Shown: positions 23,120 to 55,085, numbered from the whole stretch's first letter. The stretch: DNA of 63,948 nt, filler included, from Candidatus Hydrogenedentota bacterium (GCA_040752395.1; 11 parts of 11 records of this genome joined end to end with filler, not necessarily neighbours in it), one strand, 5' to 3'. Notes: generated by a model from the letters alone, not told the origin. Numbers and translations are program-made.

Positions 23120-23283
23120 TTTTCTACAGACTATGGTCTTTTCAGACTCCAGGCTTTTGGCTCCAGCTGGCTGTAGTCCGTAGCCTGTAGCCTGTACCCT
23201 GTCCTGATACTTCTCACTTCTTCCGTTATCTTGCTTCTTGCTTCTACTTGATATTATTATAATTACAATGTTTTTCAGAGGAG
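23120..23283 (+). repeat. Mosaic intergenic element ending in the RBS module upstream of 23294
   Basis: ...TCTTGCTTCTACTTGATATTATTATAATTACAATGTTTTTCAGAGGAG. Confidence 0.9.
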
Positions 23284-23293
23284 TAAGACGAGA

Positions 23294-23992
23294 ATGAGAG
23301 CCATAATTTTTTTTATTATTACTCTATTAATTTTAAATGCCTGCAAAGAAAACAAGATGAAAAATAAAGAGGTTGAGGCTGCTAAAATCAAGGTAGGTAG
23401 AGTAGCTGTTCCTATTGAAAAAGATAGTCTGCAAGAGATAAGGGACGAGTTAGAGAGGATAAAATACGGCGAAAAGAGAGAGTTTGTTAATACTGATTAC
23501 AGACCGCCTCTTTTTGATAGCAGTGACCCGTATATTGAAATAGATATAAAAGACCGTTATGATACAAAAACATTAAAGATTTTTTATCCTTTATTACCTG
23601 ATAAAGCTCAAGTGGGGTATTGCGACCCTGGTGATGATAATGAAGCCATTGCTTTACTTTGCTGGGATGGCACAAGGGCATGGAACTTTTTAAAGAAATT
23701 TTTGCCAGAGATTGAAAAAGGCACCAGTGCCAATGTAAGAACACCTGAAGCAAATAAAGTCATAGATAGATGTAAAAAAGATTTGATAATTTTTCTTGAA
23801 TTGAGAGAAGAACCAACACTTGTATATTTTCAGGAGGTAAATTTTAAAGATGAAACCCTTGAGACAGAGGTATCTAAAGCCGGGGTTAAAGGATATAAAC
23901 TTAAGCTTCTTGCAGATGATAAAATTTTCGTATATCATGCTACTACAAGAGGTGTATCGCATCTCGTAAGAGTCGAGAAGCTAAATAAATAG
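23294..23992 (+). CDS. Putative lipoprotein of unknown function
   Basis: Lipobox LNAC after a hydrophobic stretch. Confidence 0.7.
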   Translation: MRAIIFFIITLLILNACKENKMKNKEVEAAKIKVGRVAVPIEKDSLQEIRDELERIKYGEKREFVNTDYRPPLFDSSDPYIEIDIKDRYDTKTLKIFYPLLPDKAQVGYCDPGDDNEAIALLCWDGTRAWNFLKKFLPEIEKGTSANVRTPEANKVIDRCKKDLIIFLELREEPTLVYFQEVNFKDETLETEVSKAGVKGYKLKLLADDKIFVYHATTRGVSHLVRVEKLNK

Positions 23993-24001
23993 GAGATAAG
24001 T

Positions 24002-24178
24002 ATGAGAAGATTTTTTATTTGGGTAATTTTATTAATGTTTTCTTTTAGCATAGTATCATGTGGTACTACAAAGCCAGCTAAAATTAAAAAAGGTTCTCAG
24101 TGGATTGAAGGTCATTATAAAGTTATTGAAACACCACAGGGACCCAAACGTATCTGGATTAAGGGACACTGGGAGTAG
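24002..24178 (+). CDS. Small lipoprotein with WxxGxW-like repeats (58 aa; missing from the ORF track)
   Basis: Manual translation MRRFFIWVILLMFSFSIVSCGTTKPAKIKKGSQWIEGHYKVIETPQGPKRIWIKGHWE; AGGAG SD upstream. Confidence 0.75.
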   Translation: MRRFFIWVILLMFSFSIVSCGTTKPAKIKKGSQWIEGHYKVIETPQGPKRIWIKGHWE

Positions 24179-24359
24179 ATAAGAGGCAAGAGGCAAGAGC
24201 GTCAAAGAGTCGAGAGTCGAGGGTCAGGAGGGAAAGGCACAGAGGCACAGAGGCACAAAGTATGAAAAGAGTCACAAGTCGCAAGTCGTGAGTCAAAACA
24301 GGACTCGAGACTCAAGACTCAAGACTCAAGACTTTTCAGCAGGCTTTGGGCTTTTGGCT
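24179..24359. repeat. Mosaic intergenic element at a contig end
   Basis: AGGCAAG, GAGTCGA, AGAGGCAC (8-mer) and GACTCAA arrays. Confidence 0.9.
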
Positions 24360-24467
24360 NNNNNNNNNNNNNNNNNNNNNNNNNNNNNNNNNNNNNNNNN
24401 NNNTTAATTAATTAANNNNNNNNNNNNNNNNNNNNNNNNNNNNNNNNNNNNNNNNNNNNAGACGGTC

Positions 24468-25922
24468 TCAATCAAAGAAACGGTGTTTGGGGGTTGGAGG
24501 TTTTTTTAACACGGGTTTTATATCAGGCTTATAGTCACCTGCTAAATAATCTTTGATGGAACGAAATAACAAAGGATATAGATTTTGTGAGGGTAGATCA
24601 GTGTGAATGACAATCGCGGTCATAGAAGTATGGGTTAATAAATAATGGCTTTCAGCTGAATAGGTATAATCATCGAAAACAGAACTTAAGAAAGAAGCAA
24701 GTTTTAAGCCCGCAGAGCTTCTAAAATAATGTGTTATTTTATATTTATTATCATTAATGACGACTAACACATAATCAGGTTTAATAGTCTCAATAATTTT
24801 AAGTGACGAGGCTAAATCTGACTCAGTAATAATAGATTTTATAATAAGATGAGAATCTTTTATAGTAACCGCTTCGTAAGAAGTATCAGTTGAGATGATA
24901 AGCACAAAAGGGATAGTATCTGTTCTTAATTTATATTCAGGATGATAGAATATATTTACAGCTTCACGGTCTTTTATATTTAACGCAGAGACGATAGCGG
25001 TATCGTAATCTATAGCTTCAAGCAAGAGTCTGCACATAATTGTATCAGGGTATAAAGTAGTTTTATATACAGGCTCATTTTTGTAAAAAGTAAAAGAGAC
25101 CTCTTTTAGCGGGAGATGGTCTTTTATGGTGATAGAATATTCGGGGACTGTGTCAATCGAAACAGAGATGAAAGGGTTTCCATTATAAGAGTAATCGAGG
25201 ATAGCATTATAAATAGCCTCAGCTTCTTTTTTTAATAGTGTAATCTTTTCAAGAGACAAAGCAGTGGGTTTATGTGAAAGATAACAATTTTCAATAAGGA
25301 TGGATTCGTTGTTAGTGTTTCTAAGAACCGAGAAATTACCAGGTAAGACAACAGGTTGTAGAGAAGGATATAGTTTATTTAACTCAGTTGATAGATAGTC
25401 TGATAGAGTAGGGCATAATCCCTGGTTAAAAAGTTTATAATAAACCTCGATTTTATTGATGGTTTGATCTGAGCTTGCATTATGATGGATAGAGATAAAA
25501 AAATCGGGTTGGATTGTATTACTTATCGAGGCGCGAGTTTTTAGCTCGATTTTAAGATTATCAGTATCTGAGACAGGGAGATCAGCTTTTCGGGTATAAT
25601 AGACTTTAGCTCCGCTTGCTTCGAGCATACCGCCAAGAAACAAAGCGACTGCTAAATTTAAATCAGCCTCGCTTGCAAAATTTTCAACAGGGGATAAAGC
25701 ACCGCGCTCTTTACCACCATGACCAGGATCAAGTACAAATGACCAGCCAGATAAAGCATTATTCTTTTCTTTTAATTTAGATTCGTAAGTTATATTAAAT
25801 TTTATTTCTTTTGATAGTTTAACGATTCTATCAGATACTACGGTCTTTTTGATAGAAGGTTTAAAAGGTGCGCAGGAGTACATAAAAATACTGAATATAA
25901 GAATGAAATATAGTCTTCTCAT
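24468..25922 (-). CDS. N-acetylmuramoyl-L-alanine amidase (Amidase_3) lipoprotein
   Basis: Lipobox YSC; LDPGHGG, EADLNL, FISIHHNA, ILIE. Confidence 0.9.
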   Translation of the reverse strand: MRRLYFILIFSIFMYSCAPFKPSIKKTVVSDRIVKLSKEIKFNITYESKLKEKNNALSGWSFVLDPGHGGKERGALSPVENFASEADLNLAVALFLGGMLEASGAKVYYTRKADLPVSDTDNLKIELKTRASISNTIQPDFFISIHHNASSDQTINKIEVYYKLFNQGLCPTLSDYLSTELNKLYPSLQPVVLPGNFSVLRNTNNESILIENCYLSHKPTALSLEKITLLKKEAEAIYNAILDYSYNGNPFISVSIDTVPEYSITIKDHLPLKEVSFTFYKNEPVYKTTLYPDTIMCRLLLEAIDYDTAIVSALNIKDREAVNIFYHPEYKLRTDTIPFVLIISTDTSYEAVTIKDSHLIIKSIITESDLASSLKIIETIKPDYVLVVINDNKYKITHYFRSSAGLKLASFLSSVFDDYTYSAESHYLLTHTSMTAIVIHTDLPSQNLYPLLFRSIKDYLAGDYKPDIKPVLKKPPTPKHRFFD

Positions 25923-26484
25923 ACTATTTGTCTTACAAAAATAGATTCAGCTGAAAAAGATATTACGCACCTAAAGGTGCTCACTACATTTTTTAATACT
26001 TCTAAAAAAAGAATTTTTCATCGGTTATATGCGGCAATTATCAAAAAACAGTTAAAATCGAATTCGCAGTTATATTGTATTTAATATCTAATGAATTAGA
26101 TAGATTTAGGCAAGAAAAAACATTTTTGTTTTTTGTAATCGATGTTTAGCTGCTCATAGTATCGCAGGGAATGCTATTTTTGGTATTATGAAGAGAATTG
26201 TAGTCAGATAAATGATAATTATAATTTTCATAAAAATACCTTTTATCCTTGCCGGGGTTTAACCCCAGCTCTACAATCTTCGATTATTTTATAAGCAAGA
26301 TACATACCACAAAAATTTTACTTGATAATAAAAAAGATCATTGCTATATTATCATAAAAAAGGATAATTTTTCTTACATTATAAGGTAAAATTTACCCCA
26401 CACCTATACCAAAGTGTATAGTTTTAATCTACAAAAGGAGTCTCCATAAGTACGGTTTGCGCTCTACCCCCCATTAGAGAAAGT

Positions 26485-26542
26485 TACTTTGTGCCTCTTT
26501 TTCTCCCCTTTAAAGTGTCTCACGTTTCAGGGGAACAGTATA
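26485..26542. repeat. Isolated mosaic-element module (TTTGTGCC plus TTTAAAGTGTCTCACGTTTCAGGGGA)
   Basis: Near-identical to 31975-32030. Confidence 0.75.
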
Positions 26543-26602
26543 AACCAGTGTCAACCCACTTTGATTTTTTTTCATAAGACAGATTTCGTATTTTTGTTTT
26601 TA

Positions 26603-26845: not shown

Positions 26846-26856
26846 AAGAAACCTCC

Positions 26857-27617
26857 TTATTTCCTGAATCTGCTACTTTCAGTGCAGAAGAAACAAGTAA
26901 TCCCTTTCTTGTTCGGATATTTTACAATGAGTACTCGTATTATCGAAGCAGCTGGTTTCCAATATGCTGTAAATGTCTGCAACGAGATAGTAACTTTTTT
27001 ACCATATAAAAATAACGTATACCTTTTAAATAATGATACTCGTTTTGATGATTCCATCAATGATGGCAACCGTATCCCATATTTACGAGGTCTGCCTCGT
27101 TTTCTACATTTAGGATAAAGAACAGCATCAATTCTTAACCGACTTATAAAAATAATACCATTGGAGATACAGTGTTTTAATAAAGCTTCTTTAGCATAGA
27201 AAGCGTCTGCAACTATAATAAAATAAGACTTTATTCGTTCCTTTATCTTTCGCAATATTTGTATAGCTATATCTATCCGAGATATATGTTCTTTATTATA
27301 TGGTTTATATTTCTGTGGGATGTAAAGTTGAGCAAGGATAGGAAAACAAAGCCATTTAGAGACAAGAGTTGAAAAATGAATAAGTGATATAAAAACCCAG
27401 TTATGACCATAAATATATTTTGATTCATTCTGTTTTGCAGAATGATTGAAATGTATACCACAACCAAAAATATGTTTACCCTTTTTCCCTATGAGTGTAT
27501 CGTCAAGTGCAAAGGTTAGTGGTTCTTTTATATTCAATGTTTTTATAATGACTTCGATTAACACAAAAGCCAGTTCATAAATACTCCATACATATTGATT
27601 AAGAAATTTATGAAAGT
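26857..27617 (-). mobile_element. IS701/IS4-like DDE transposase, truncated
   Basis: ALDDTL..KKG, YGHNWV, VADAFYA, RGRPRKYG, FFCT; stops before the final catalytic E region; 5' part cut by the contig end. Confidence 0.8.
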
Positions 27618-27718
27618 NNNNNNNNNNNNNNNNNNNNNNNNNNNNNNNNNNNNNNNNNNNNTTAATTAATTAANNNNNNNNNNNNNNNNNNNNNNNNNNN
27701 NNNNNNNNNNNNNNNNNA

Positions 27719-27859
27719 GCTATAGAAAATAAAGCAAGTTGTATCGCTATTGAATCTTTAAAATCTTTATTTTTTCAGAGAGAAGACTCCATTGATTTGG
27801 CTAACAAACATAAATTAAGTATAATCGGGTTACCATATAATTGGAATGTGTCCACTTAG
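27719..27859 (+). CDS. lpxI: 3' end of an LpxI-like UDP-2,3-diacylglucosamine hydrolase (partial)
   Basis: Manual translation AIENKASCIAIESLKSLFFQREDSIDLANKHKLSIIGLPY resembles the LpxI C-terminus. Confidence 0.6.
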   Translation, partial: AIENKASCIAIESLKSLFFQREDSIDLANKHKLSIIGLPYNWNVST

Positions 27860-28875: not shown

Positions 28876-30750
28876 ATGAAAATAAAAACTATATTAGCGT
28901 TCGTTATATTGTTAATAGGAAATTTTATTACTATTTTATCTTATGGATATGATAGAAATGCAGCTGTTGCTTATGCTAATAAATTCTATTCGATACCAAA
29001 TTCACAATGGTTTGAAGTTAAGGATGAAGATTGCGCAAATTTTGGTTCACAGTGTGTTATTGCGGGCAATTTGATATGTGATAAATCGTTTGCTGCAGGA
29101 GGCCCAACAATAAATTATAAACAAGGCAATGGTTATACATTTGAGCAGGCTCGGGACTTGGCCTGGTGGCTGATCAATTCCGGCTTAGCAGAAGAAAAAG
29201 GATATAGATTTGTCGGACAGGATAAATACATGCCTGGGATTGGACCTGGTGATATAATAATATGGATTAAAAATCTCGGTACTCCTCAAGAAGAGTATTT
29301 CCATACGCTTGTTGTAACGAATGTTATACAAGGGAAAATAGAATATGCTTGCCATACAGTACCACCATTAAAAGGGGATTTGGATACAAACTATCATGAT
29401 AAACATCTTTATTACTTACATTTAAAAGATGCGCCGATTATAAAGTATTTCAAGCTGGAGGGTGATGCCGGATATACTATTACGGAATGGAAATATGATG
29501 ATGATTACACACAAGGACCGACAATGGGAGAATATTACAAAAACACGTATAACGGTCTTAATCCAACACCGCTTGATCCAGATAGACCGATTTGGACAGT
29601 AACATCTGGCGGAACAAAAATTACTGCGTTGTTTGACTGCGAAATGGAGCAGACTGAAGATGTGATGATGGTAGCGCCTGAAGGAATAAATAATGATTTT
29701 GTTTATACAGGTATCACTTCCGGGGCATGGACAATAGGTCCAAATAGTAAGTGGCAGGCTAAATTTACAAAACAATGGTCAGATTTAACCAATGAGCAAA
29801 GAGCAACTGAAAACATCAAAACTTGGTTTATCGTAAACAAGGCAAAATCAACAGACGGAAGTTTGATTGATGAGGACAACAAACTAAATAAATATTCAGT
29901 ATGGGATAAAGGATACGGCAAATCACATACTGAAGAACTGAAACTTGATAACTTCCTACCGTACCTTGTGAAGATGGAAGTGTTTCAGAACAACGAGCAG
30001 AAATATTTGTCAGAGTGGGTATGGGATGGTTCGCAAATGAAACAAAAAACAACTAAAAATGATTTTCTTAAATGTAATCAAGAAATTGTTATGAGTTTAT
30101 ACTTCAGCGAAGGTATCAAACAGGTACAAAACGAGATTAGCATAATCAATGACCATACCTATGAGATCAGAAAAGTATTCTCTAATTTATCTGATGAACA
30201 AGTTGTTATGGTCGAGGCGATCGATTATGCCAGCAATGAATTATATGGGAAGCCTGAAAATATTCCAACCATCAGTCGAAATAATCAAGGAGTTTGGGTA
30301 TATGGTCCCAAAAAAGACATGAATCATAAGATCAAATTCCTGAATATAGCAAAACTCGACTTTGGATATTTTAAAGACCAGCCAGAGAAGACGGAATTAA
30401 GTGCTTATCTTGACAAAGACGGTATAAAATTGTCTCGAAAGGAAATCATATTTAGTGGAGATAGAGCTTTGTCAAGATTGACCATATCTCCTCGAGGTGG
30501 TATAGTATTATATGAATATAGTCCGTCGCCGATGTATAATAGGATAGGCAGAATTGATCTTGCTTATGAATCAATACCACCCTATCAATTATTAGGGCAA
30601 AACCAGAGGGATCCAGATCTTTCCTCGGACACAGGGTATTTGACATACATAAATCATACTGATGAAATATTTAAAATTGAAAACAATGCAGGTATTGTGT
30701 TTGCTCAGGTTCTTCAGGATTTACTATTCAGATTCTTTCCTATAGTTTAG
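28876..30750 (+). CDS. Secreted protein with putative amidase (Amidase_6/NlpC-P60-like) domain, possibly truncated at the 3' end
   Basis: Signal peptide; YDRNAAVAYA, DCANFGSQC, PGDII, HTLVV, YACHT. Confidence 0.75.
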   Translation: MKIKTILAFVILLIGNFITILSYGYDRNAAVAYANKFYSIPNSQWFEVKDEDCANFGSQCVIAGNLICDKSFAAGGPTINYKQGNGYTFEQARDLAWWLINSGLAEEKGYRFVGQDKYMPGIGPGDIIIWIKNLGTPQEEYFHTLVVTNVIQGKIEYACHTVPPLKGDLDTNYHDKHLYYLHLKDAPIIKYFKLEGDAGYTITEWKYDDDYTQGPTMGEYYKNTYNGLNPTPLDPDRPIWTVTSGGTKITALFDCEMEQTEDVMMVAPEGINNDFVYTGITSGAWTIGPNSKWQAKFTKQWSDLTNEQRATENIKTWFIVNKAKSTDGSLIDEDNKLNKYSVWDKGYGKSHTEELKLDNFLPYLVKMEVFQNNEQKYLSEWVWDGSQMKQKTTKNDFLKCNQEIVMSLYFSEGIKQVQNEISIINDHTYEIRKVFSNLSDEQVVMVEAIDYASNELYGKPENIPTISRNNQGVWVYGPKKDMNHKIKFLNIAKLDFGYFKDQPEKTELSAYLDKDGIKLSRKEIIFSGDRALSRLTISPRGGIVLYEYSPSPMYNRIGRIDLAYESIPPYQLLGQNQRDPDLSSDTGYLTYINHTDEIFKIENNAGIVFAQVLQDLLFRFFPIV

Positions 30751-30869
30751 CTATAGAAAATAAAGCAAGTTGTATCGCTATTGAATCTTTAAAATCTTTA
30801 TTTTTTCAGAGAGAAGACTCCATTGATTTGGCTAACAAACATAAATTAAGTATAATCGGGTTACCATAT
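30749..30869 (+). repeat. 121-bp exact direct repeat of 27718-27838 (lpxI 3' segment)
   Basis: Both contig ends read AGCTATAGAAAATAAAGC...GGGTTACCATAT. Confidence 0.97.
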
Positions 30870-30969
30870 NNNNNNNNNNNNNNNNNNNNNNNNNNNNNNN
30901 NNNNNNNNNNNNNTTAATTAATTAANNNNNNNNNNNNNNNNNNNNNNNNNNNNNNNNNNNNNNNNNNNN

Positions 30970-31143: not shown

Positions 31144-31515
31144 TCCTCCTCTGAAAAACGTTGTCACTCTAATGATATCAAGTAGAAGCAAGAGACAAGA
31201 GGCAAGAAGCAAGATAAACAAACATCTGGTTTTTCATCCTTTGTGTAGAGCGCAAAAACCCAAGAACCCAAGAACCCAATAGTGTAGAGCGCAACCCGCG
31301 CTCATGTTGACTCCTATGAAAAGTCTTGAGTCTTGAGTCCTGTTTTGACTCACGACTTGCGACTCACGACTCTTTTCATATCATCTTTAGTTTTTCATCC
31401 TTTGTGTACCCCGTTAGAGAACGAAATTTAACTCTATGCTGTTAACAGAGTAACTTTTGAAAAAATAGACTTCAGCCTACGAGCTACCAGCTACTGCTGA
31501 AAAGCCGAGAGCCAC
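31144..31515. repeat. Mosaic intergenic element ending in the RBS module of rfaD
   Basis: CTCCTCTGAAAAACG, AGAAGCAAG arrays, GTGTAGAGCGCAACCCGCGCTC and the GAGTC/GACTC module. Confidence 0.92.
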
Positions 31516-31910: not shown

Positions 31911-32052
31911 TGAAAAGTTAAAAGTTAAAAGTAAAGAAAAACATCTGGTTTTTCATACTTTGTGCCTTTGTGCCTTTGTGCCTCTTTTCCTCCACTTTAA
32001 AGTGTCTCACGTTTCAGGGGAGCAGTATATTACAGCGTTTTTCAGAGGTGTT
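31911..32052. repeat. Mosaic intergenic element
   Basis: TGAAAAGTTAAAAG..., TTTGTGCC 8-mers, TTACAGCGTTTTTCAGAGG. Confidence 0.85.
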
Positions 32053-32058: not shown

Positions 32059-32994
32059 TCAATAAAAGGTTGTTCGATAAACAGGCTGAAATAACTCTAT
32101 ATTTTTCTCACAATAGTCTGATAACAGACATCTATCACATTCGGGTCGGGTCATTTCCGGGCAGTAGTTTCTGCCCTGAAAAAATAACCAGTCTATCTCT
32201 GGTGTCCCTACCTTAGCCATAGTTTTTAACATCTGTATAGCCCCAAATATACAATTTCGGATATCCATCTCTTCATCCCGCAAGACAAATCTTTGGTGTA
32301 TAATTTTATCTCTCAGTTTAACTGAACTTATCTTCACCATGCCTGTGCGTAAACTTAATCTTTGTATATGATAATCAATAATTGGTGGTATATCTTCTTT
32401 TTTTATGAATTTTTCAGGTCTGTTCTGCAAAATCATTATCAGCATATTAATCTTTTTTGATAATGGGTCTTCTTTATACCCACCTATTTTTCTCAATGAA
32501 TCCCTCAAATATATAGAGGGTGCTTTCTCTTTTTTTGCTTCTTCAACAAGTTTTAAGGGTGTAAAATTATTAGCTATCATCTCTTTCCCATAAGTCTGCA
32601 TTAAAATCAGATGTGCTGTTATTGTAGGTAATGGGCAAAACCCTTTATCACAACGCCATAACTGATTGAGGATATCAAGAGTGATATTACTCTGATATTT
32701 CTCTTTAAAAAATTCTGGTCTCTCTTTTATCATTCTCATACCCACACGCCATATAAAATCAGAACCTTTTAATTTCTCTCCCTCAATCTCTACAATCATC
32801 GGTCTCTCATATCCAACACTATTGTTATACCAGAACCCGAATTGATGTTTACTTAAAACAAAAAAGAAATCCAGTGCAAGTGGGTGGCCAACTTCAGGTA
32901 AATATTTCCCGGTAAAATTAAAAGGTTTAAATTTTTTATTATCTTTAAAAAATTTTGCTATCTTTTTAATTCTCTTCTCGTCTATCTCAATCAT
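32059..32994 (-). CDS. HhH-GPD / Q-salvage-like glycosylase-fold protein with a C-terminal 4-Cys Fe-S motif
   Basis: DPLSKK, IIDYHIQRLSLRTG, and C-x6-C-x2-C-x5-C (CPEMTRPECDRCLLSDYC) as in endonuclease III. Confidence 0.6.
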   Translation of the reverse strand: MIEIDEKRIKKIAKFFKDNKKFKPFNFTGKYLPEVGHPLALDFFFVLSKHQFGFWYNNSVGYERPMIVEIEGEKLKGSDFIWRVGMRMIKERPEFFKEKYQSNITLDILNQLWRCDKGFCPLPTITAHLILMQTYGKEMIANNFTPLKLVEEAKKEKAPSIYLRDSLRKIGGYKEDPLSKKINMLIMILQNRPEKFIKKEDIPPIIDYHIQRLSLRTGMVKISSVKLRDKIIHQRFVLRDEEMDIRNCIFGAIQMLKTMAKVGTPEIDWLFFQGRNYCPEMTRPECDRCLLSDYCEKNIELFQPVYRTTFY

Positions 32995-33938: not shown

Positions 33939-34064
33939 CTCCTCTGAAAAACATTGTAACTCTAATGATATCAAGTAGAAGCAAGAGGCAAGAAGCAAGA
34001 TAACGGAAGAAGTGAGAGGTATCAGGACAGGCTACAGGCTACGGACTACAGCCGGCTGGAGCCC
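33939..34064 (-). repeat. Mosaic element with the RBS module of hisG, at a contig end
   Basis: Reverse complement ...CTACTTGATATCATTAGAGTTACAATGTTTTTCAGAGGAG-8 nt-ATG. Confidence 0.92.
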
Positions 34065-34164
34065 NNNNNNNNNNNNNNNNNNNNNNNNNNNNNNNNNNNN
34101 NNNNNNNNTTAATTAATTAANNNNNNNNNNNNNNNNNNNNNNNNNNNNNNNNNNNNNNNNNNNN

Positions 34165-34352
34165 GACTACAGCCGGCTGGAGCCCGAAGCCAAAAGCCTC
34201 CTGAAAAGTCTTGAGTCTTGAGTCTCGAGTCCTGTTTTGACTCACGACTTGCGACTCACGACTCTTTTCATATCATCTTTAGTTTTTCATATATTGTGTA
34301 GAGCGGAACCCGCGCTCATGACGACTCACGACTCTCGACTCTTTGACTCCAT
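34165..34352. repeat. Mosaic element downstream of rpmD, at a contig start
   Basis: GACTACAGCCGGCTGGAGCC, GAGTC/GACTC module, GTGTAGAGCGGAACCCGCGCTC. Confidence 0.92.
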
Positions 34353-34538: not shown

Positions 34539-35103
34539 TTACCTGTTCCTTATCTTTTATATTTTCTTTATATGTTTCTATCTTTTTCTTTGTGCTTGGT
34601 TTTAATTCTTCAGTGGTTTTACCACGATTTTTTGCTATCTTCTCAATATCATAGATACTGAGCAGCCCTTTTACAGTGGCTTTTACAACGTTCATAGCAT
34701 TGTTAGCACCAAGCGATTTAGCAAGACAATTCTTTATTCCTGCTGCTTCAAGAATAGCCCTTACAGGTCCACCGGCAATAACACCTGTTCCAGGAGAAGC
34801 AGGTTTTAATATCACTTTAGCTGCTCCATGAACACCTATTACACCATGGGGTATAGTGCCTTTTTTCCTTGGTATACGAATAAGATTTTTTCTTGCTTTT
34901 TCCACGCCTTTTCTTATAGCTTCAGGAACCTCATTTGCTTTCCCAACCGCTATGCCAATTACACCATCTTTATTACCAACAACAATCACGGCTCTAAACC
35001 CCAAATTTTTGCCACCCTTAACAACTTTAGCCACACGGCTTAAACTTACAAGTCTATCTTCTAATTCATAATCATTCGGATTAATAATCTCTCGTATACC
35101 CAA
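34531..35103 (-). CDS. rpsE: 30S ribosomal protein S5
   Basis: [34 protein letters not shown] start at 35103 after GGAGG. Confidence 0.97.
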
Positions 35104-35109
35104 GCTATA

Positions 35110-35430
35110 ACCTCCTCTGAAAAACGTTGTAACTCTAATAATATCAAATAGAAGCAAGAAGCACGATAACGGAAGAAGTGAGAGGTGTCAGGACGGGCTA
35201 CAGGCTACAGGCTACGGACTACAGCCGGCTGGAGCCAAAAGCCAAAAGCCTGCTGAAAAGTCTTGAGTCTTGAGTCTCGAGTCCTGTTTTGACTCACGAC
35301 TCTTTTTATATCATCTTTAGTTTTTCATACTTTGTGTAGAGCGCAAAAATCCAAAAACGCAATAACCCAAGAACCCAATAGTGTAGAGCGCAAACCGCGC
35401 TCATGTTGACTCCTTCGAAAAAGTTGATGA
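35110..35430. repeat. About 320-bp mosaic element between rplR and rpsE
   Basis: Carries REP-like, GGTTCTT, GAGTC/GACTC, GTAGCCT and RBS modules. Confidence 0.93.
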
Positions 35431-35802
35431 TTAAAACTTCAGGCCTGATTCTCTTGCGGCTTCAGCCATCTCTTTAACCCTGCCATGATATAAATGTCCA
35501 CCTCGATCAAGAACCACTTTTTCAATCCCTTTTTCCATAGCTTTTTTTGCTAAGACCTCGCCAACAAGCTTAGCTATCTCTTTCTTTGTTTTTTTATTAT
35601 TTTTTAAAATATCTTTTATCTCTTTACTTAGACTTGAACAGAAAATTAATGTCCTTTGTTCCTCATCATTAATAATTTGAGCATAAATATGCTTTAAACT
35701 TTTATGAATAGATAATCTTGGTCTCTCAGTTGTCCCGAATATCCTCTTCCTTATCCTTAGTTTCCTCTTTTTGTATTTCTCTACCCGACTCATTCTTGTC
35801 AT
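35431..35802 (-). CDS. rplR: 50S ribosomal protein L18
   Basis: GTTERPRLS, HIYAQII, DRGG..YHGRV. Confidence 0.97.
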   Translation of the reverse strand: MTRMSRVEKYKKRKLRIRKRIFGTTERPRLSIHKSLKHIYAQIINDEEQRTLIFCSSLSKEIKDILKNNKKTKKEIAKLVGEVLAKKAMEKGIEKVVLDRGGHLYHGRVKEMAEAARESGLKF

Positions 35803-35817
35803 AAGCTATCCGAAGTA

Positions 35818-36372
35818 TTATTTTACAACAGCTTTACCAGCTTTTCGTCTCACATATTCTCCAAACAATCTTATACCTTTGCCTTGATAAGGTTCAGGTT
35901 CTTTTATAGCTCTAATCTTTGCCGCAGTATTGGTGACGAGTTCTTTGTCAATACCCTTGATTGTTATAATAGAATTTTTTTCTTTATCTAACTCAATATT
36001 AATACTCAACCCCTCTGGGATCTCAAAATTAACAGGGTGCGAAAAACCAAGAGATAATACAAGATTTTTCCCTTTTAATTCAGCCTTATAACCCATACCC
36101 ATAATGTGCAATTTCTTTTCATAACCACTGATTACCCCGGTGAACATTCCTTGAATTAATCTATAATATAAACCCTGTAATGCTTTTGTTTCACTATCTG
36201 AAGCAATGGTTATTACCGTTATATTATCTTCGTTTTTTTGAATTTCAATTTTATCATTTCTAAATTTCCGTTTTAGTTTACCCTTAGGTCCTTCAACAAA
36301 AATAGTGTCATTTTCAATAACTACTTTTACTCCTTGCGGTATTTTAATAGGTTTACCAGCTATCCTCGACAT
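35818..36372 (-). CDS. rplF: 50S ribosomal protein L6
   Basis: MSRIAGKPI, GPKG, LGFSHP, PEPYQGKGI. Confidence 0.97.
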   Translation of the reverse strand: MSRIAGKPIKIPQGVKVVIENDTIFVEGPKGKLKRKFRNDKIEIQKNEDNITVITIASDSETKALQGLYYRLIQGMFTGVISGYEKKLHIMGMGYKAELKGKNLVLSLGFSHPVNFEIPEGLSINIELDKEKNSIITIKGIDKELVTNTAAKIRAIKEPEPYQGKGIRLFGEYVRRKAGKAVVK

Positions 36373-36384
36373 CGTTTACTCCCT

Positions 36385-36619
36385 TATGTCGCTTCGCTCC
36401 ATTGTAAATTGTAAATTACAAATTTATTTGCCTACTACGGGTCTTGTGACCCTCACTACTTCGTCGGAGTTCGGAGTTCGGAGCTCGGAGCTCGGATCTA
36501 TTATTACGAACTCCTAACTCCTAACTTTTTCATACTTTGTGCCTTTGTGCCTCTTCGGTTATCTTGCTCCTTGCCTCTTGCCTCTAATTCGTGCTGTTTC
36601 TTGCTTCTTGCTTCTAATA
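36385..36619. repeat. Mosaic element between rpsH and rplF
   Basis: TTGTAAA arrays, GTAG hairpin, GGAGTTC/CTCCTAA module, TTTGTGCC and TCTTGC arrays. Confidence 0.9.
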
Positions 36620-37018
36620 CTAATACACCACACAGATACGCTCGCCACCGAGATTGTTCTTCTTTGCTTTTGAATTTGTCATTAACCCTTTTGAAGTAGA
36701 AATAATTTCTATACCTACCCCGGCCATAACAGGTCTAATATCAGCTGATTTCACATAGACTCTACCACCTGGTCTTGAAATCCTTACAAGTTGGTGAATA
36801 ACAGGTTCACCTTCGTCATTATATTTCAAAAATATTCTAATAATTCCACGTTTATCGTTTTTTACAATCTTGAAATGTTTTATAAACCCTTCTTCTTTTA
36901 ATATTTTTGCTATACCTATTTTTAATCTTGATGAGGGTATATCAACTTTTGCATATCTTTCTTTATTAGCATTGCGGATACGTGTTAACATATCAGCTAT
37001 AGGATCAGTCATTACCAT
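36620..37018 (-). CDS. rpsH: 30S ribosomal protein S8
   Basis: TDPIADMLTRIRNA, ISRPG.RVY, STSKG, GGE. Confidence 0.97.
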   Translation of the reverse strand: MVMTDPIADMLTRIRNANKERYAKVDIPSSRLKIGIAKILKEEGFIKHFKIVKNDKRGIIRIFLKYNDEGEPVIHQLVRISRPGGRVYVKSADIRPVMAGVGIEIISTSKGLMTNSKAKKNNLGGERICVVY

Positions 37019-37029
37019 TTTTAATTAGT

Positions 37030-37205
37030 TCCTCCTCTGAAAAACGCTGTAACTCTAATAATTCGGGGTACAGGCTACAGGCTACGGACTACAGCCGGCT
37101 GGAGCCAAAAGCCAAACGCCTGCTGAAAAGTCTTGAGTCTTGAGTCTTGAGTCTTGAGTCTTGAGTCCTGTTTTGACTCACGACTCTTTTCATATCATCT
37201 TTAGT
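37030..37205. repeat. Mosaic element with the RBS module of rpsH, at a contig end
   Basis: CCTCCTCTGAAAAACGCTGTAAC, GGCTACA array and a five-unit AGTCTTG array. Confidence 0.92.
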
Positions 37206-37305
37206 NNNNNNNNNNNNNNNNNNNNNNNNNNNNNNNNNNNNNNNNNNNNTTAATTAATTAANNNNNNNNNNNNNNNNNNNNNNNNNNNNNNNNNNNNNNN
37301 NNNNN

Positions 37306-43134: not shown

Positions 43135-43215
43135 CCCTCCTCTGAAAAAGTTCGAAGTTCGGAGTTCGGAGCTCGTATCTATTATTACGAACTCCTAACT
43201 CCTATCTTTTTCATA
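43135..43215. repeat. Compact mosaic element between gatA and gatB
   Basis: TGAAAA-(GGAGTTC)n...(CTCCTAA)n-TTTTCA; its TTTTTCAGAGGAG end is the gatB SD. Confidence 0.88.
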
Positions 43216-44619
43216 TCATCCATCTAAAAAAGTTTTCGGTATCATTCTATGCCAGTTTGTGTTTCTCTGATATATATCAGCAACTTTTAGTATTATTTCT
43301 TCACTAAGTGCAGGTCCAATTATCTGTAAACCAACTGGTAGATTGTTTTTATCAAAACCACAGGGTATAGAGATAGCCGGGATACCAGCAAGATTTACTG
43401 AAATAGTAAATATATCTGACAGATACATAGACAATGGGTCATCTACTTTTTCGCCAATCTTAAATGCAACTGTAGGCGAGGTTGGCGTAATAATAACATC
43501 TACTTTTTTGAAGCTTTCTAAAAAATCCTGTTTTATCAAACTCCTTACTTTCTGAGCCTTTAAATAATAAGCATCATAATATCCTGATGATAGTGCATAT
43601 GTTCCGAGCATAATTCTTCGTTTAACCTCAGACCCGAAACCCGCTCTCCTTGTCTCTTTATACATCGCTATCAAATTCTCTTTTTCAATCCTTAATCCAT
43701 ATTGCACGCCGTCAAATCTGCTAAGATTAGATGAGGCCTCAGCTGTAGCTACAAGATAATAAACAGGCACAGCATATTCTGTATGAGGTAAAGAAATATT
43801 TTCTACCGTTGCTCCAAGAGACTTTAATAATTCTATGGCTTCAAGTACCCTCTCTTTAACATCTTTTTCTATACCCTCAATAAAATATTCTTTTGGTATC
43901 CCGATTTTTAAGCCCTTTATATCACCATTAAGCGCTTGAGTGTATTTTCTTCTATTACCAGGTATTGATGTAGAATCATTCTTATCGTATGATGCTATAA
44001 TTTCAAGGAGTAAAGCTGCATCATAAGCTGTTATTGTGATAGGTCCTATCTGATCAAGACTGGAGCCAAAAGCTACAAGCCCAAATCTTGATACCAGTCC
44101 ATACGTAGGTTTTAAACCAGTCACACCGCAGAAAGCAGCAGGCTGTCTTATTGATCCACCAGTATCAGAACCGAGTGCCCAGGGAACAAGCCTTGCTGCG
44201 ACCGCTGCTGCGCTACCACCGCTCGAACCACCAGGAACATAATCTAAATTCCATGGATTTTTTGTTATAAAAAACGAAGAATTCTCAGTCGATGACCCCA
44301 TAGCAAACTCATCAAGATTGGTCTTCCCCATTATTGTAAAATCTGCCTCTTTAAGTAATTTTACAACTGTAGCATCATACGGTGGTATAAACCCTTTTAA
44401 TATCTTTGAAGCACAGGTTGTCTCTACACCTTCAGTACAAATATTATCTTTTATCCCGATCGGGACACCGTCACCATCTATAATAGTAGTATTTATAAAA
44501 GCATTAATTAAGCTATTATGTTTATCAATTCTCTGTTTATAAAAATTAATCACTTCTTTAGCATTGATACTTTTTTTATCAATCTCTTCTATTAATTCTT
44601 TTGCAGATTTATCAATCAT
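43216..44619 (-). CDS. gatA: Asp/Glu-tRNA amidotransferase subunit A
   Basis: [41 protein letters not shown]. Confidence 0.98.
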
Positions 44620-44635: not shown

Positions 44636-44682
44636 CTCCAGTCTTCAGTAAGGTTTCACCTATCTTGCTTCTTGCCTCTATA
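44636..44682. repeat. Short mosaic element between gatC and gatA
   Basis: CAGTCTTCAGT...TATCTTGCTTCTTGCCTCTA, related to 690-735. Confidence 0.7.
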
Positions 44683-44989: not shown

Positions 44990-45168
44990 TTTGCACCCCT
45001 GAAAAGCGTTTTTGAAAAAATTAAGATTAAGAAGTAAAAGGTAAAATGTCAATTAAATTCTGGTCTTGTTTTTGCTTCTTTTAATTAATAACAAAATTAT
45101 TTCTCTTTTTTGTAAAAATTTTTTCTTGAATTTATTCATTGGAGTTATATATAATGTTTTTGTGTAAT

Positions 45169-45312
45169 CCCTCGGTTATTGGTGCAGTAGAACTTATACT
45201 TTAGAAGCAAGAAGCAAGAAGCAAGATAACGGAAGAAGTGAGAAGTGAGAGGTATCAGAAAATAGAAGCAAGAGGCAAGAAGCAAGACTACGGAATTCCA
45301 CTGAAGACTGAG
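45169..45312. repeat. Mosaic element, long form of 690-765
   Basis: CCTCGGTTATTGGTGCAGTAGAACTTATACTTTAGAAGCAAG...CCACTGAAGACTGAG with an extra internal block. Confidence 0.88.
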
Positions 45313-47979: not shown

Positions 47980-48094
47980 ATGAATTTCGACTCCTCATCC
48001 TAAGACCCCTGACTCTGAGCACTACACCTATAACCATGTTAGTCGACATTCTGCATAATGTTAAATTGGAAATTTTAGCCCGTTAGATTTTGTT

Positions 48095-48195
48095 TATCTT
48101 GCCTCTTGCTTTTACTTGATATTATTATAGTTACAGCGTTTTTCAGAGGAGTAAAAATAAATTTGCGATTTACAATTTACAATGGAGCAAAATGA
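48095..48195 (+). repeat. Mosaic element upstream of ppx (RBS module plus TTTACAA module)
   Basis: TCTTGCCTCTTGCTTTTACTTGATATTATTATAGTTACAGCGTTTTTCAGAGGAG...TTTACAATTTACAATGGAGC. Confidence 0.88.
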
Positions 48196-48199: not shown

Positions 48200-49141
48200 A
48201 TGTCTGAATTATACTCAAGTATCGATCTTGGAACTAACACATTGCGACTCTTAATAGCAGAATTCAAATACCCATATTTACAGCCCATTGAGATGCTTAT
48301 CTCTATGCCACGAATCGGCGCTGATCTTATTAATACAAACTATATTGATACAAACTCATTAAAAAGAACTATTCATTACTTAAGAGTTTATTCTAAAATA
48401 TTGAATAATTATTCAATAAAAAACCCTATCTGTTTTGCTACCGCTTCTCTACGTTATGCGAAAAATAAAAATACTGTTCTACAAAAAATTAAGAAAGCCA
48501 CAGATCTCGAATTCACTGCAATTAGCGGTGAGAAAGAAGGCTATTTATCATTTCTTGGTGCCACTTATTCGCTTGGTTCAAAATTTAAAGAAAAATTAGT
48601 TATGGTTATAGATATAGGTGGTGGTTCAACTGAATTGTCAGTTGGTTATCCCTGCAGGAAACCAATTATCAGTCATAGTCTTCGGCTTGGCTCCTGTATG
48701 CTATGCGAAAAATTCAACCTATTCGAATACCCTGATAAAAAATCTATACTCAATGCAAAAGAATATATCATCGAGCAAATTAAAACTTTGAAAAAATTTC
48801 AATTTACCCATTTAATAGGTGTTGCCGGAACAATTACTACATTAAAAACAATCAGTTTGAAACTTGAAATATATAAAAAATCACTTATACAGAACTCCAC
48901 GCTGTCATTAAACGAGGTCTCTGAAATATATAATTTAGTAAAAATATTATCAATAAAACAAAGACTCTCTATGAAAGGGTTACCAGAGGGTAGAGCTGAT
49001 GTGATTATTGGTGGAAGTCTTATTACAAAAACAATACTTGAATACTTTGACGTTAATTCATTAATAGTTTCTGATGAGGACATAATGTATGGTGTTATAT
49101 ACGAAAAAGTAGGAACTAAGAAAGCCGGGTGTAGTCCGTAG
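48200..49141 (+). CDS. ppx: Ppx/GppA exopolyphosphatase (short form)
   Basis: IDLGTNTLRLLIA, ATASLR, ISGEKEG, DIGGGSTE, RADVIIGG. Confidence 0.9.
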   Translation: MSELYSSIDLGTNTLRLLIAEFKYPYLQPIEMLISMPRIGADLINTNYIDTNSLKRTIHYLRVYSKILNNYSIKNPICFATASLRYAKNKNTVLQKIKKATDLEFTAISGEKEGYLSFLGATYSLGSKFKEKLVMVIDIGGGSTELSVGYPCRKPIISHSLRLGSCMLCEKFNLFEYPDKKSILNAKEYIIEQIKTLKKFQFTHLIGVAGTITTLKTISLKLEIYKKSLIQNSTLSLNEVSEIYNLVKILSIKQRLSMKGLPEGRADVIIGGSLITKTILEYFDVNSLIVSDEDIMYGVIYEKVGTKKAGCSP

Positions 49142-49241
49142 CCTGTAGCCTGTAGCCCGTCCTGACACCTCTCACTTCTTCCGTTATCTTGCTTCTTGCC
49201 TCTACTTGATATCATTAGAGTTACAATGTTTTTCAGAGGAG
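49124..49241 (+). repeat. Mosaic element joining ppx and dus; contains the ppx stop and the dus SD
   Basis: GCCGGGTGTAGTCCGTAG(stop)CCTGTAGCC...TTTTTCAGAGGAG-5 nt-ATG. Confidence 0.92.
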
Positions 49242-50581: not shown

Positions 50582-50618
50582 AGAATATAAAGAGAAAAAA
50601 GCCAGTTACTATAAATAT

Positions 50619-50646: not shown

Positions 50647-50672
50647 AAATAATAGAGATTTTCTAATAAAAT

Positions 50673-52685: not shown

Positions 52686-52731
52686 TTTAATTCTATTGAC
52701 TTATTAGCTTATTCCAAAATATTATTAGAAT

Positions 52732-53643
52732 ATGAAATTATATAAATGCTCTGTTATTATTTTTTTATCCATCTTTTGTTTGTCCGGTTCCATATACTCG
52801 ATTGATTGGAAATATAAAGAAGACGAGTATTTTTATTATAGTGAAAAGTTCTCAAACAACACTATTGTAGTAGTTAATCAGAAACGTATCTTCCCCGATA
52901 AAAAAAACAAATATAAAACAAAAGTTGAGTTAATAAATGGAGTTAACCTTATCTCGGCAAGAATAATAGAACCGCCTCTAGAAAAGATATATTATTATTG
53001 TATTCTTCATAAACTGCCACGGCCTGTTATAGAAAAAGATAAATATGTTATTTTTACCAACGTAAAAGATCTTATGGTAAGAGGGGATGTTGCAGCTAAT
53101 ATAGGTTATGTCTCGGTTTTTGGCCAGCGGTTCCCTGAAGGATATTTTAATTATAAAACAAAACTTTTTTTTGAGGAAAATCTTTTAGAGATAAAGTTCG
53201 GAAATCAGCCATCATACTACCACGGCCCTGAAAAAATACTCTTTATTTATGATTATATACCGCCTCAAATATTATTCATAGAAACAGAATATCATAAAGA
53301 AAAATATAAAACGTCTTTGAGGCTTAATATTATAGATAAAGGTATCTACATAGAACGCGGTAGCGGTATCAAAATTAAAAAAAGATATTACATAATTGTT
53401 GGTTCAGAAAAAGAGAATAAAACCTACAAAATATATTTAAAAAAAGATTCTGATATATTTTCACAGGAGATATCTGCGAGGAGGTTTAGAGACAAGATTC
53501 TAACATTACTCGGGAGCAATATTGAAGATAATGCAGGTAATAAACTTCTAATACCAAAGGATTTAAAAATAGATATATTATTCAGCGGGGCCCTCAAGTG
53601 CAAGATCCTCAAACGAGGCGAGATGCTTAACAAAAGACAATGA
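52732..53643 (+). CDS. Hypothetical secreted protein
   Basis: 303-aa ORF with signal peptide and upstream TTGACT promoter-like motif; 3' end overlaps dnaB convergently. Confidence 0.6.
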   Translation: MKLYKCSVIIFLSIFCLSGSIYSIDWKYKEDEYFYYSEKFSNNTIVVVNQKRIFPDKKNKYKTKVELINGVNLISARIIEPPLEKIYYYCILHKLPRPVIEKDKYVIFTNVKDLMVRGDVAANIGYVSVFGQRFPEGYFNYKTKLFFEENLLEIKFGNQPSYYHGPEKILFIYDYIPPQILFIETEYHKEKYKTSLRLNIIDKGIYIERGSGIKIKKRYYIIVGSEKENKTYKIYLKKDSDIFSQEISARRFRDKILTLLGSNIEDNAGNKLLIPKDLKIDILFSGALKCKILKRGEMLNKRQ

Positions 53644-54966
53644 AACTATACCTGTTGGCCCATTTCTCTGTTTTGCTATATTAATCTCAGCGAGACCACT
53701 ATACTCCGGTTTCTTAGGAAAATATATTTCGGGTCTGTAGATAAACATTACCATATCAGCATCCTGTTCAATCGAGCCGCTCTCACGTAGATCAGAGAGC
53801 TGTGGCATCATATCTTTTGTGCTACGTTTTTCAGGTGCACGTGATAGCTGTGATACTGCAATCAGTGGTATCTCAAATTCTCTTGCTATCTGTTTCAATC
53901 CAAGAGATATCTCACTTACTTCCTGTACTTTATTCTGATACTTCTGTATAGAACTCATCAATTGAAGATAATCAACAGTCACAAGGTCTATCTTCCCCAC
54001 TTCCTGTATAAGTCTTCTCAACTTGGCTTTTATATCTACAACGTTGAGCTGTGGTTTGTCATCGATATATATCGGTGCCTTTCTCAAAGCTATCTGTTTT
54101 ATCCCTATCATTGCAAGAAGACGTTTATCAATCTTAGCTGTTCGTAGTAAATGCAAATTTATGCCGCTCAATCTTGATAACATCCTCATCATTAATTGTT
54201 CAGCAGGCATCTCAAGAGAAAACATAGCTATAGAATATATCTTTTCTTCACCCTCTCCTGCCTTTTCACCGCTACGTGGCAGAATCCCGGTTGCCCTCAT
54301 CGCAACATTTAAAACAAAAGCTGTCTTCCCCATCCCCGGTCTCGCAGCTACAATTATTAAATCAGATTTCTGAAACCCTGCTGTCATCTCATCAATCTTT
54401 GCATAACCCGATGATACACCTGTTATCCCCTCACCTATCTCAATCCTCTGTATCACGCCTGGCAGTTTTTCATCTATGATTTTACTAAGCGGTACCAAAC
54501 CTTTGTCAATTTTATCCTGCACTATTTCAAAAATTCGCTGCTCCGATTTATCAATTATCTCTTTTATCTCCTGTCCCTGATCATATCCCATCTTCGCCAT
54601 CTCATCAGAAACTTGTATTAATTTTCTTCTTAAAGATTTTTGTTTAATTATTTCTACATAAGTATAAGCATTCGCAGGTATACCCACCCCATCAAAAAGA
54701 GAAAGTATATAATCGATCCCGCCTGCAGCCTCAACAGCATTTTTTGAGATAAGAACATCCTTTAAAGTTATAAGGTCTATTGGTCTATTATTCTGAAAGA
54801 GATCAATCATTGCCTGATAAATAACTCTGTGGCTTTCTCTGTAAAAATCATCTAGCTTTAATTTATCTATATAGTATGTTATTAATTCGGGTTCGGTTAA
54901 TATTGCCTGAATAAATGATTTTTCAGCCTCTATATCATGTGGTAAGACTTGAGCTATATCTTCCAT
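53578..54966 (-). CDS. dnaB: Replicative DNA helicase
   Basis: PHDIEAE, AARPGMGKT, FSLEM, DYLQLM, SQLSR, DLRESGSIEQDAD, KQRNGPTG. Confidence 0.98.
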   Translation of the reverse strand: MEDIAQVLPHDIEAEKSFIQAILTEPELITYYIDKLKLDDFYRESHRVIYQAMIDLFQNNRPIDLITLKDVLISKNAVEAAGGIDYILSLFDGVGIPANAYTYVEIIKQKSLRRKLIQVSDEMAKMGYDQGQEIKEIIDKSEQRIFEIVQDKIDKGLVPLSKIIDEKLPGVIQRIEIGEGITGVSSGYAKIDEMTAGFQKSDLIIVAARPGMGKTAFVLNVAMRATGILPRSGEKAGEGEEKIYSIAMFSLEMPAEQLMMRMLSRLSGINLHLLRTAKIDKRLLAMIGIKQIALRKAPIYIDDKPQLNVVDIKAKLRRLIQEVGKIDLVTVDYLQLMSSIQKYQNKVQEVSEISLGLKQIAREFEIPLIAVSQLSRAPEKRSTKDMMPQLSDLRESGSIEQDADMVMFIYRPEIYFPKKPEYSGLAEINIAKQRNGPTGIVSLSFVKHLASFEDLALEGPAE

Positions 54967-54969
54967 AAC

Positions 54970-55085
54970 TCTCCTCTGAAAAACATTCTAACTCTAATAA
55001 TATCAAGTAGAAGCAAGAGGCAAGAGGCAAGAAGCAAGATAACGGAAGAAGTGAGAGGTGTCAGGACAGGCTACAGGCTACGGAC
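54970..55085 (-). repeat. Mosaic element with the RBS module of dnaB, at a contig end
   Basis: Reverse complement ...CTACTTGATATTATTAGAGTTAGAATGTTTTTCAGAGGAG-4 nt-ATG. Confidence 0.92.

Follow-up and report, generated by a model that had tools for sequence, protein, structure and literature searches.

Small dispersed repeats can donate promoters. The Correia elements of Neisseria are small repeats that make outward promoters and can overlap the starts of open reading frames (ORFs), with 26-bp inverted ends and a TA duplication, and the REP and BIME repeats of enterobacteria are short hairpin modules that form intergenic mosaics co-transcribed with their neighbors. In the available text of the two papers concerned, Correia elements are named both beside putative mobile promoters (PMC3575422) and beside the BOX elements of the pneumococcus, which have the mosaic structure boxA-(boxB)n-boxC (PMC3049150). 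Putative mobile promoters are stretches of at least 50 nt and at least 80% identity that lie between -150 and -50 of non-paralogous genes (Matus-Garcia, Nijveen, and van Passel, 2012; commentary PMC3575422). The TAACTGA heptamers of Beggiatoaceae are described, in the accessible portion of that report, as forward direct repeats within a few nucleotides of start codons, including those of ribosomal operons (MacGregor, 2015, PMC4679880). Here we describe intergenic repeat arrays in a draft genome of a Candidatus Hydrogenedentota bacterium (GCA_040752395.1) that, from their sequence and placement, seem to have usurped the signals for translation initiation at core genes, some of which are essential in most bacteria. 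The window is the whole stretch of 63,948 bases that was analyzed, and all counts and the repeat map cover these ~64 kb of joined draft contigs. The arrays end in a terminal module, T, of about 31 nt, which closes with U5-CAGA-GGAG; its constant 3′ end is the 13-mer TTTTTCAGAGGAG.

Ten exact copies of TTTTTCAGAGGAG occur in the window. Allowing up to two mismatches raises the number to 20, against 3.57 expected from shuffles, and 20 copies were reached by none of 100 shuffled sequences. Eight of the ten exact copies lie 4-13 nt 5′ of a start codon, all in the sense orientation, before a lipoprotein-like ORF, rfaD, hisG, rpsE, rpsH, gatB, dus, and dnaB (individual spacers, from GGAG to start, in Table 1). 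Under a null restricted to intergenic DNA (59 ORFs, 15,388 nt, either strand), such an accumulation in the 4-13 nt sense slot has p ~8e-13 for 8 of the 10 exact copies and ~8e-12 if all 12 recognizable copies are counted. A preliminary description of this DNA had listed these eight genes with their spacers, and all eight values and orientations were reproduced exactly; the copy that it placed further upstream of ppx is the ninth exact one, and the variant that it reported before gatC is present as TTTTCAGGGGTG. Its gene names agree with NCBIfam matches to a heptose epimerase, HisG, S5, S8, GatB, a DusB-like protein, DnaB, an exopolyphosphatase, and GatC. Two details had to be amended: the start codons of rfaD and rpsE are TTG, and the ORF at 23294, named there as a lipoprotein, matched no NCBIfam family. 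The profile alignments start within a few residues of the proposed start codons, and the proposed rpsE start is consistent with the RpsE N-termini of relatives; rfaD is present as a 55-aa N-terminal fragment ended by the contig end. Behind the tenth exact copy (17699) come a further repeat module and the contig end, with no gene start within the contig. Both further recognizable copies, at 19421 and 32038, are degenerate.

The suggestion of the preliminary description that the module supplies a ribosome-binding site (RBS) is borne out by the anatomy of the spacers. At least three of them (gatA-gatB, ppx-dus, and rplR-rpsE) consist entirely of repeat except for the last 4-8 nt. Since the arrays fill these spacers, the GGAG of the module is the only candidate Shine-Dalgarno (SD) sequence there for gatB, dus, and rpsE. 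By position, it is the only SD candidate for at least eight genes in all, including genes of the spc operon and the gatA-gatB pair. Among the seven gene-adjacent copies of the most common form (type A, below), 0 of 91 cells differ in the 13-mer, whereas 9 of 91 do so in the 13 nt leading up to it (Fisher p 0.003, computed over cells that are not independent because the copies share ancestry). GGAG is invariant wherever a gene follows and has decayed in two unused copies (19421 and 32038). The RBS role of the module is therefore well supported by anatomy and position.

Module T closes a mosaic family of intergenic repeats; the modules upstream of T are hairpins with arms of tandem heptamers (7-nt period). 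In M1, a GC hairpin is followed by 8-mer repeats and by a tail that ends in TGAAAAAC; a short linker comes next. M2 consists of GAGTCGT heptamers, a loop, and GACTCAA heptamers, and M3 of GGCTTTT heptamers, a palindrome, and GTAGCCT heptamers; M3 is followed by M4a, two to five TCTTGCY heptamers, and T. GAACTCC and AATTTAC complete the set of heptamer units. T is the common end of four upstream contexts, with 31 nt shared in type A (heptamers plus TGATATYAT; eight copies) and in type B (GTAGCCT heptamers; the rpsH copy, that at 17699, and one in another genome, G001), 21 nt in type D (32038), and the 13-mer alone in type C (gatB). The hairpin modules fold better than shuffled sequences (gatB hairpin z -4.4, M2 z -2.8, M3 z -1.7); M4 plus T does not (z +0.8, +1.4), so that the array closes with a leader that is rich in pyrimidines, lacks structure, and contains the U-tract and GGAG. 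Sequestration of the SD by an upstream CCTCT stretch was considered and rejected, since the structures predicted for M4 plus T do not exceed those of shuffles in stability. A scan for intrinsic terminators flagged M2 on the antisense strand only. Rfam gave nothing in the window at the gathering threshold apart from a 5S rRNA gene, and in 34900-37300 it returned only two chance-level microRNA matches (E 0.2-0.5).

An extended -10 pattern had also been pointed out, and it is indeed there. TGATATYAT (TG-n-TATTAT/TATCAT, with TG one base before a TATAAT-like hexamer that agrees with the consensus at 5 of 6 positions) occurs in 8 of the 12 recognizable copies, all eight of type A, and always 13 nt before the 13-mer, that is, 22 nt before GGAG. 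The block TTGATATYAT has 3 of 70 differing cells, all at Y. No -35 hexamer stands at a distance of 16-18 nt; the TTGCYT hexamers are 8, 15, or 22 nt away from the -10, a spacing that caused a consensus scan to miss the site. What the scan flagged was CTGACA-N17-TATCGT in M4a, and the corresponding pattern CTGAYA-N17-TATCKT occurs in five copies, 38, 45, or 52 nt upstream of the 13-mer, the distance varying with the number of heptamers. The promoter-like part is absent from two of three operon-internal copies (rpsH and gatB) and present in six of six others (p 0.08). Relatives carry TTGACA-N17-TG-n-TATAAT-type promoters before gatB, and the RNA polymerase of the lineage therefore probably reads such signals. 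From this resemblance, promoter activity of the type A module is plausible.

Whether the GGAG is brought by the element or was there before it bears directly on how the arrays insert. The preliminary description had proposed that the element targets native GGAG sites, and part of this holds. M1, as the next module, directly follows GGAG in five of five cases, and in four of these the surrounding sequence, TTT(T)C/A-N-GGAG, is similar to the end of T. The three TTTTC-N-GGAG junctions to which it had drawn attention are real (17699-17711, 31311-31323, and 35410-35422), and a fourth lies at ~20823-20835. Copies that replace the SD outnumber those further upstream by eight to two, which favors integration at GGAG because random harmless insertion should prefer the larger upstream space. 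Other observations suggest that GGAG is not simply native. GGAG-like sequence also closes copies that no gene follows (GGTG at 32038, GAAGAA at 19421, where there is no usable start, and GGAG at 17699), GGAG is also found at an internal M2-M1 junction (31311), and a near-identical T stands before an ATG in G001; these argue that the element also carries its own GGAG, which looks element-borne. Supply of an RBS and targeting of GGAG are not alternatives, and a model that combines them is favored.

The rplR-rpsE spacer allows a comparison with other genomes. In the six nearest relatives sampled, the two genes are 2-4 nt apart and the SD GGAG of rpsE lies within the final codons of rplR, which speaks for a carried GGAG in the window. 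There, 327 nt separate the two genes, the in-gene GGAG is absent and its codon pair reads CTGAAG, and the end of rplR (35431-35460) encodes GLKF* against GLEF* in the six relatives, which fits a loss of constraint after filling of the spacer.

On balance, then, we think it somewhat more likely than not that new arrays integrate just 3′ of a GGAG and that their own terminal GGAG regenerates the RBS. An array would meet GGAG either as a native SD or as the end of a resident T and would insert immediately 3′ of it. Its terminal GGAG would then restore an RBS with nearly unchanged spacing to the start codon, and such a regenerated RBS would make insertion before essential genes tolerable. The common type A version might in addition fire an outward promoter from TGATATYAT or CTGAYA-N17-TATCKT, a step in which we have less than even confidence. 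A broader interpretation is tentative: the arrays could constitute a self-propagating translation-initiation cassette that homes to SDs, inserts after GGAG, and regenerates the RBS from its own U-tract and GGAG end, its common form adding an outward promoter. It is possible, if doubtful, that such a cassette colonizes at low cost while rewiring spc, gatCAB, and dnaB, as a species-specific outcome of a spacer-filling habit of the phylum.

Several points weigh against the favored explanation, with its integration at GGAG, regeneration of the RBS by an element-borne GGAG, and, for type A, an outward promoter. GGAG is a generic SD, and its invariance near genes cannot alone separate a carried from a native sequence. 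In six more distant relatives, the rpsE spacer contains AAGAGG at 10 nt from the ATG; the AGAGG of T is spaced identically, and to judge from this a native SD may have stood at that spot. Empty sites for comparison were not found among the relatives, which are only ~60% identical in GatB and RplR, and an empty-site check of the copy in G001 yielded, within the class, no orthologue of the downstream gene above 38% identity. The arrays in the window have no transposase or recombinase linked to them; fragments of DDE_5/insertion sequence (IS)-type transposases (26857-27564 and 55300-55542) lie elsewhere and do not adjoin heptamer arrays. Clear terminal inverted repeats are likewise lacking, with only an 8-nt inverted pair, TGAAAAAC in the M1 tail and GTTTTTCA in T, recurring at module borders; this 8-mer occurs 32 times against 5.6 expected, and a pair of 8 nt within 341 nt is possible by chance. 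On either side of the sole complete composite stand TTTTTCGAAGGAG and TTTTTCAGAGGAG; the remaining arrays have left ends that follow GGAG, while their right ends are lost at contig ends. The -35 spacing of TGATATYAT (15 nt, not 16-18) is that of a site passed over by the consensus promoter scan, the conservation statistics are drawn from cells of related copies, and the sample, 64 kb of concatenated draft contigs, is small and fragmented.

The first alternative is pure target-site specificity, in which the element would end at ...TTTTTCAGA, integrate 5′ of a native GGAG, and carry no RBS. Nine window genes without repeats have GGAG-type SDs, read from the listing, at spacers of 5-11 nt, with which the 4-13 nt spacers of the T copies overlap, and both the adjacency of M1 to GGAG in five of five cases and the 10-nt spacing shared by AGAGG at rpsE and AAGAGG in the distant relatives would be expected. 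This alternative is nevertheless unlikely. It leaves the GGAG-like ends of copies without a gene (32038, 19421, and 17699) and the GGAG at the internal 31311 junction without a reason, the rpsE SD of the six nearest relatives lies within rplR rather than in the spacer, and native SD contexts vary (AAGGAG, TGGAGG, GGGAG), whereas all nine gene-adjacent copies read exactly GGAG.

Random intergenic insertion without targeting, followed by selection for a restored or intact RBS, is about as unlikely. With rpsE, rpsH, gatB, and dnaB among the genes, selection has to operate under any model, and insertion at other positions is evidently tolerated, as the copies at ppx (30 nt) and 19421 (~55 nt) show; there are also arrays without T upstream of intact native SDs, for example at rplF, where a native-looking AAGGGAG resembling the rplF SD of relatives is left between the array and the start. 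Random insertion does not, however, account for 8 of 12 copies lying in a 10-nt slot when harmless upstream positions are far more numerous, nor for left junctions at GGAG in five of five cases.

It is quite improbable that the arrays are not mobile and serve as a shared cis-regulatory leader, kept by selection before the members of a regulon: either an operator for an RNA-binding protein or small RNA, of the kind proposed for the TAACTGA heptamers of Beggiatoaceae, or a weak thermosensor formed by the U-tract and the SD. Near-identity of 86-98% over 50-90 nt between unrelated genes exceeds the requirements of an operator, the modules vary in number, occur in shuffled, truncated, and inverted form, and overlap stop codons, and the genes have no obvious shared function and the arrays no Rfam match. 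These observations stand against the invariance of the entire 13-mer, including a U-tract that an SD alone does not need, the pairing of U5 with GGAG(G) in the predicted folds of gatB and rpsH, and the published precedent of heptamers near start codons, the TAACTGA repeats of Beggiatoaceae as set out in the accessible portion of PMC4679880. An assembly artefact, with repeat ends misjoined to gene starts in the draft, is very improbable, since each T-gene junction is unique and inside a contig and nine junctions agree with each other and with G001:C128, an independent assembly, although the window consists of concatenated contigs, 6 of its 10 linkers adjoin arrays (as expected if assembly broke within repeats), and the far-upstream module order could be chimeric.

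When genome contigs were scanned with the T pattern, the matches listed contained a single locus, G001:C128, at the start of a 2.2-kb contig of a metagenome-assembled genome (MAG). Its copies of the M1 tail, M3, and T share 90-97% identity with those of the window, and its near-identical T stands 9 nt before the ATG of a 24-codon ORF. GatB and RplR of G001 are only 60-62% identical to those of the window, which points either to horizontal spread of the module or to a binning error for this contig; its GC content does not discriminate between the two. G001 and 40 relatives hold at most one copy per genome of the 14-mer searched for, and the 14-mer hits in G004, G028, and G031 were discarded as chance contexts. 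A scan of metagenome contigs with a heptamer/TGATATYAT pattern gave 45 loci, all attributable to chance and none with the module, and plasmid and phage collections had no match to the module.

Relatives were compared over 12 genomes in the class of G001 and 25 in its phylum. In all of them, the long spc spacers hold species-specific heptamer or hairpin repeats, and spacer filling by heptamers and hairpins is therefore a habit of the lineage. The spc repeats of these relatives stop a few nucleotides before a conserved native SD, as illustrated by the rpsH SD AAGGAGTA-AAAAA-ATG in four species and the rpsE SD AAGAGGTAGAA-ATT-ATG in five. Two members of the phylum (G022 and G019; L098-L105) carry (GACTCAA)n arrays of up to ~18 units together with GAGTC-type heptamers, as in M2; as a separate observation, each GACTCAA unit in these arrays holds a GANTC site. 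A REP-like hairpin (core CCCTTAATAAAGGGG, then GTTAGGGGGTTGT) is amplified in 10 of the 12 genomes of one class, where a single genome holds as many as 71 copies and controls hold 0 (L106-L135, G002-G011); in the 19 distinct contexts inspected it is intergenic and its position relative to the SD is not fixed. Among the matches listed, a shared terminal module that forms the SD is confined to the window organism and the one G001 contig.

Coordinates of the arrays are given in Table 1. Ten linkers interrupt the window, dividing it into two pieces of ~17.8 kb and others of ~3.1-3.3 kb; by their sequence they are probably six-frame stop spacers that join draft contigs. The linkers place the genes behind repeat copies on several draft contigs, and because the window is a concatenation, adjacency across a linker is meaningless and some of the arrays are incomplete. 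Repeats make up about 3.6 kb of the window. The 5S gene (61424-61540) begins directly at a linker and is the sole rRNA gene, no 16S rRNA being found within the window.

Table 1. Repeat arrays, single copies, and linkers in the window, with their relation to the nearest genes.
Feature	Coordinates	Strand	Relation to neighbors
Array M3 - M4a - TCTTGCY heptamers - TGATATTAT - T	23141..23283	+	GGAG 10 nt before ATG 23294 (lipoprotein-like ORF)
Array M1 tail - linker - M2 - CTTTTCATAGGAG - M1 - heptamers - TGATATCAT - T	31146..31408	-	GGAG 11 nt before rfaD TTG 31134
Array M3 - M4a - heptamers - TGATATCAT - T, contig end upstream	33939..34064	-	GGAG 8 nt before hisG ATG 33930
Sole complete composite TTTTTCGAAGGAG - M1 - linker - M2 - M3 - M4a - heptamers - TGATATTAT - T	35112..35422	-	Fills rplR-rpsE spacer; GGAG 8 nt before rpsE TTG 35103
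Type B array linker - M2 - M3 - T, without TGATATYAT, contig end upstream	37032..37205	-	GGAG 13 nt before rpsH ATG 37018
Type C: linker - AGGAGTT/GAACTCC heptamer hairpin - 13-mer of T only	43137..43215	-	Fills gatA-gatB spacer; GGAG 4 nt before gatB ATG 43132
Type A copy: heptamers - TGATATTAT - T	48094..48151	+	30 nt before first ppx ATG 48182; then AATTTAC-heptamer module ending AATGGAGC
Array M3 (part) - M4a - heptamers - TGATATCAT - T	49123..49241	+	Overlaps last codons and stop of ppx; GGAG 5 nt before dus ATG 49247
Array M3 (part) - M4a - heptamers - TGATATTAT - T, contig end upstream	54971..55085	-	GGAG 4 nt before dnaB ATG 54966
Type B array, T at 17681-17711, then M1-like module, heptamers, contig end	17616..17824	+	
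Type A copy, decayed end TTTTTCAGAAGAA	19421..19484	-	~55 nt upstream of M48 peptidase ATG 19365
Type D copy GTTTCAGGGGAG ... TTTTTCAGAGGTG	32011..32050	+	Into 3′ end of convergent gene 32059-32994; no start codon follows
Variant TTTTCAGGGGTG	44994..45005	-	4 nt before gatC ATG 44989
Array directly after TTTACAGAAGGAG: M1 - linker - M2 - M3 - M4a, then contig end	20823..21095	+	
Array directly after ATGGAG: heptamers - short M1 - linker - M2 - M3, then contig end	34165..34350	-	After rpmD
Linkers N44-TTAATTAATTAA-N44	17825-17924, 21096-21195, 24360-24459, 27618-27717, 30870-30969, 34065-34164, 37206-37305, 55086-55185, 58222-58321, 61333-61432		

Some arrays also share nucleotides with neighboring coding sequence. 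The ppx stop codon is the TAG of an M3 GTAGCCT heptamer (49139-49141, in the array beginning at 49123), and the gatA stop is the TGA of the linker module (43216-43218); a run of GTAGCCT offers TAG in all three frames within 21 nt. M1 opens with an ATG 6 nt after GGAG (17708, 20832, 31314, and 35413), giving short ORFs of 10-40 codons. A conserved leader peptide from this ATG was considered and found to be unsupported, the four translated copies (10-40 aa) differing in frame and end. Downstream of rpmD, the array follows ATGAAATCAGTCTATGGAG (34330-34350); rpmD and rplO overlap (ATGA) in most relatives, rplO is not in the window, and from its position the array may lie at or inside the old rplO start.

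Other repeats were noted in passing. A second module, of AATTTAC heptamers ending in AATGGAGC, is found at 36396-36420 and 48160-48190 and inverted at 19572-19610; its GGAG lies 12 nt before the second ppx ATG and 22 nt before rplF, and the inverted copy reads GAAGC. A leader-like repeat of the form CAGTCTTCAGTGG-ATTCCGT-heptamers-CTAAAGTATAAGTTCTACTGCACC... occurs at 691-771, 44640-44680, and 45164-45312, where it stands 3′ of a TTGACA-type promoter and 5′ of an amylase-like gene (788) and, elsewhere, in the divergent region at gatC. A 109-nt repeat is common to two contigs (55530-55638 = 63840-63948) and does not adjoin heptamer arrays. The contig at 27718-30869, which encodes a HEAT-repeat-like protein and an Amidase_6 protein, has identical 121-nt ends (27718-27838 and 30749-30869) and could be a small circle, a tandem duplication, or an assembler overlap.

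If arrays do insert after GGAG and restore the RBS, this would provide a route by which mobile or recombining non-coding DNA enters essential operons without killing the host, and would raise the question of whether a repeat family can use the SD itself as its integration site. It would also offer a natural, portable 5′ untranslated region (UTR) and RBS part, perhaps with a promoter, from an uncultivated lineage, and gene callers and operon predictors should then treat such repeats as functional start signals.

Compared with described families, the arrays share most with those that place near-identical non-coding DNA upstream of non-paralogous genes in one genome, as putative mobile promoters do (PMC3575422). 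The lipoprotein, hisG, rpsE, dus, and dnaB copies, and rpsH together with rpsE, fall within the limits given for mobile promoters, with upstream identities of 93% over 90 nt (lipoprotein-rpsE), 97% over 74 nt (dus-rpsE), 98% over 66 nt (dnaB-hisG), and 98% over 55 nt (rpsE-rpsH). That screen, however, omitted the last 50 nt before the start and is silent on the RBS (PMC3575422), whereas the defining part of the window arrays is the last 13-31 nt, ending in the SD, and the arrays reach inside essential operons. Like BOX elements, the arrays are short hairpin modules of variable order and number, intergenic and co-transcribed, according to the available text on BOX (PMC3049150), and as imperfect palindromes in extragenic mosaics they correspond to REP and BIME; GTAG, read from the sequence, recurs in the M3 heptamers (compare the GTAG-type 5′ tetranucleotide of REP). 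Unlike the arrays, neither BOX nor BIME is reported to finish in the SD of the gene that follows, for BOX as far as the available text goes (PMC3049150). The REP-like CCCTTAATAAAGGGG hairpin of the relatives belongs to the same candidate phylum and is amplified; unlike T, it is not tied to the SD. Where Correia elements have long inverted ends and a TA duplication, the window arrays have only the 8-nt inverted pair and GGAG as the junction motif. In the literature searched, which was not exhaustive, there is no description of a repeat family whose end serves many core genes as their SD. The closest biological parallel, on the accessible portion of the report, is provided by the TAACTGA heptamers (PMC4679880). 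In both cases the downstream genes lack a common function. The TAACTGA repeats themselves have no SD character and replace the RBS region, with ~10% of the repeat-bearing regions also containing an SD, as stated in that portion of the report. The window arrays, by contrast with what is described there (PMC4679880), contain no TAACTGA unit, are built from diverse hairpin-forming heptamers, and bring their GGAG in a separate, non-heptamer module, T.

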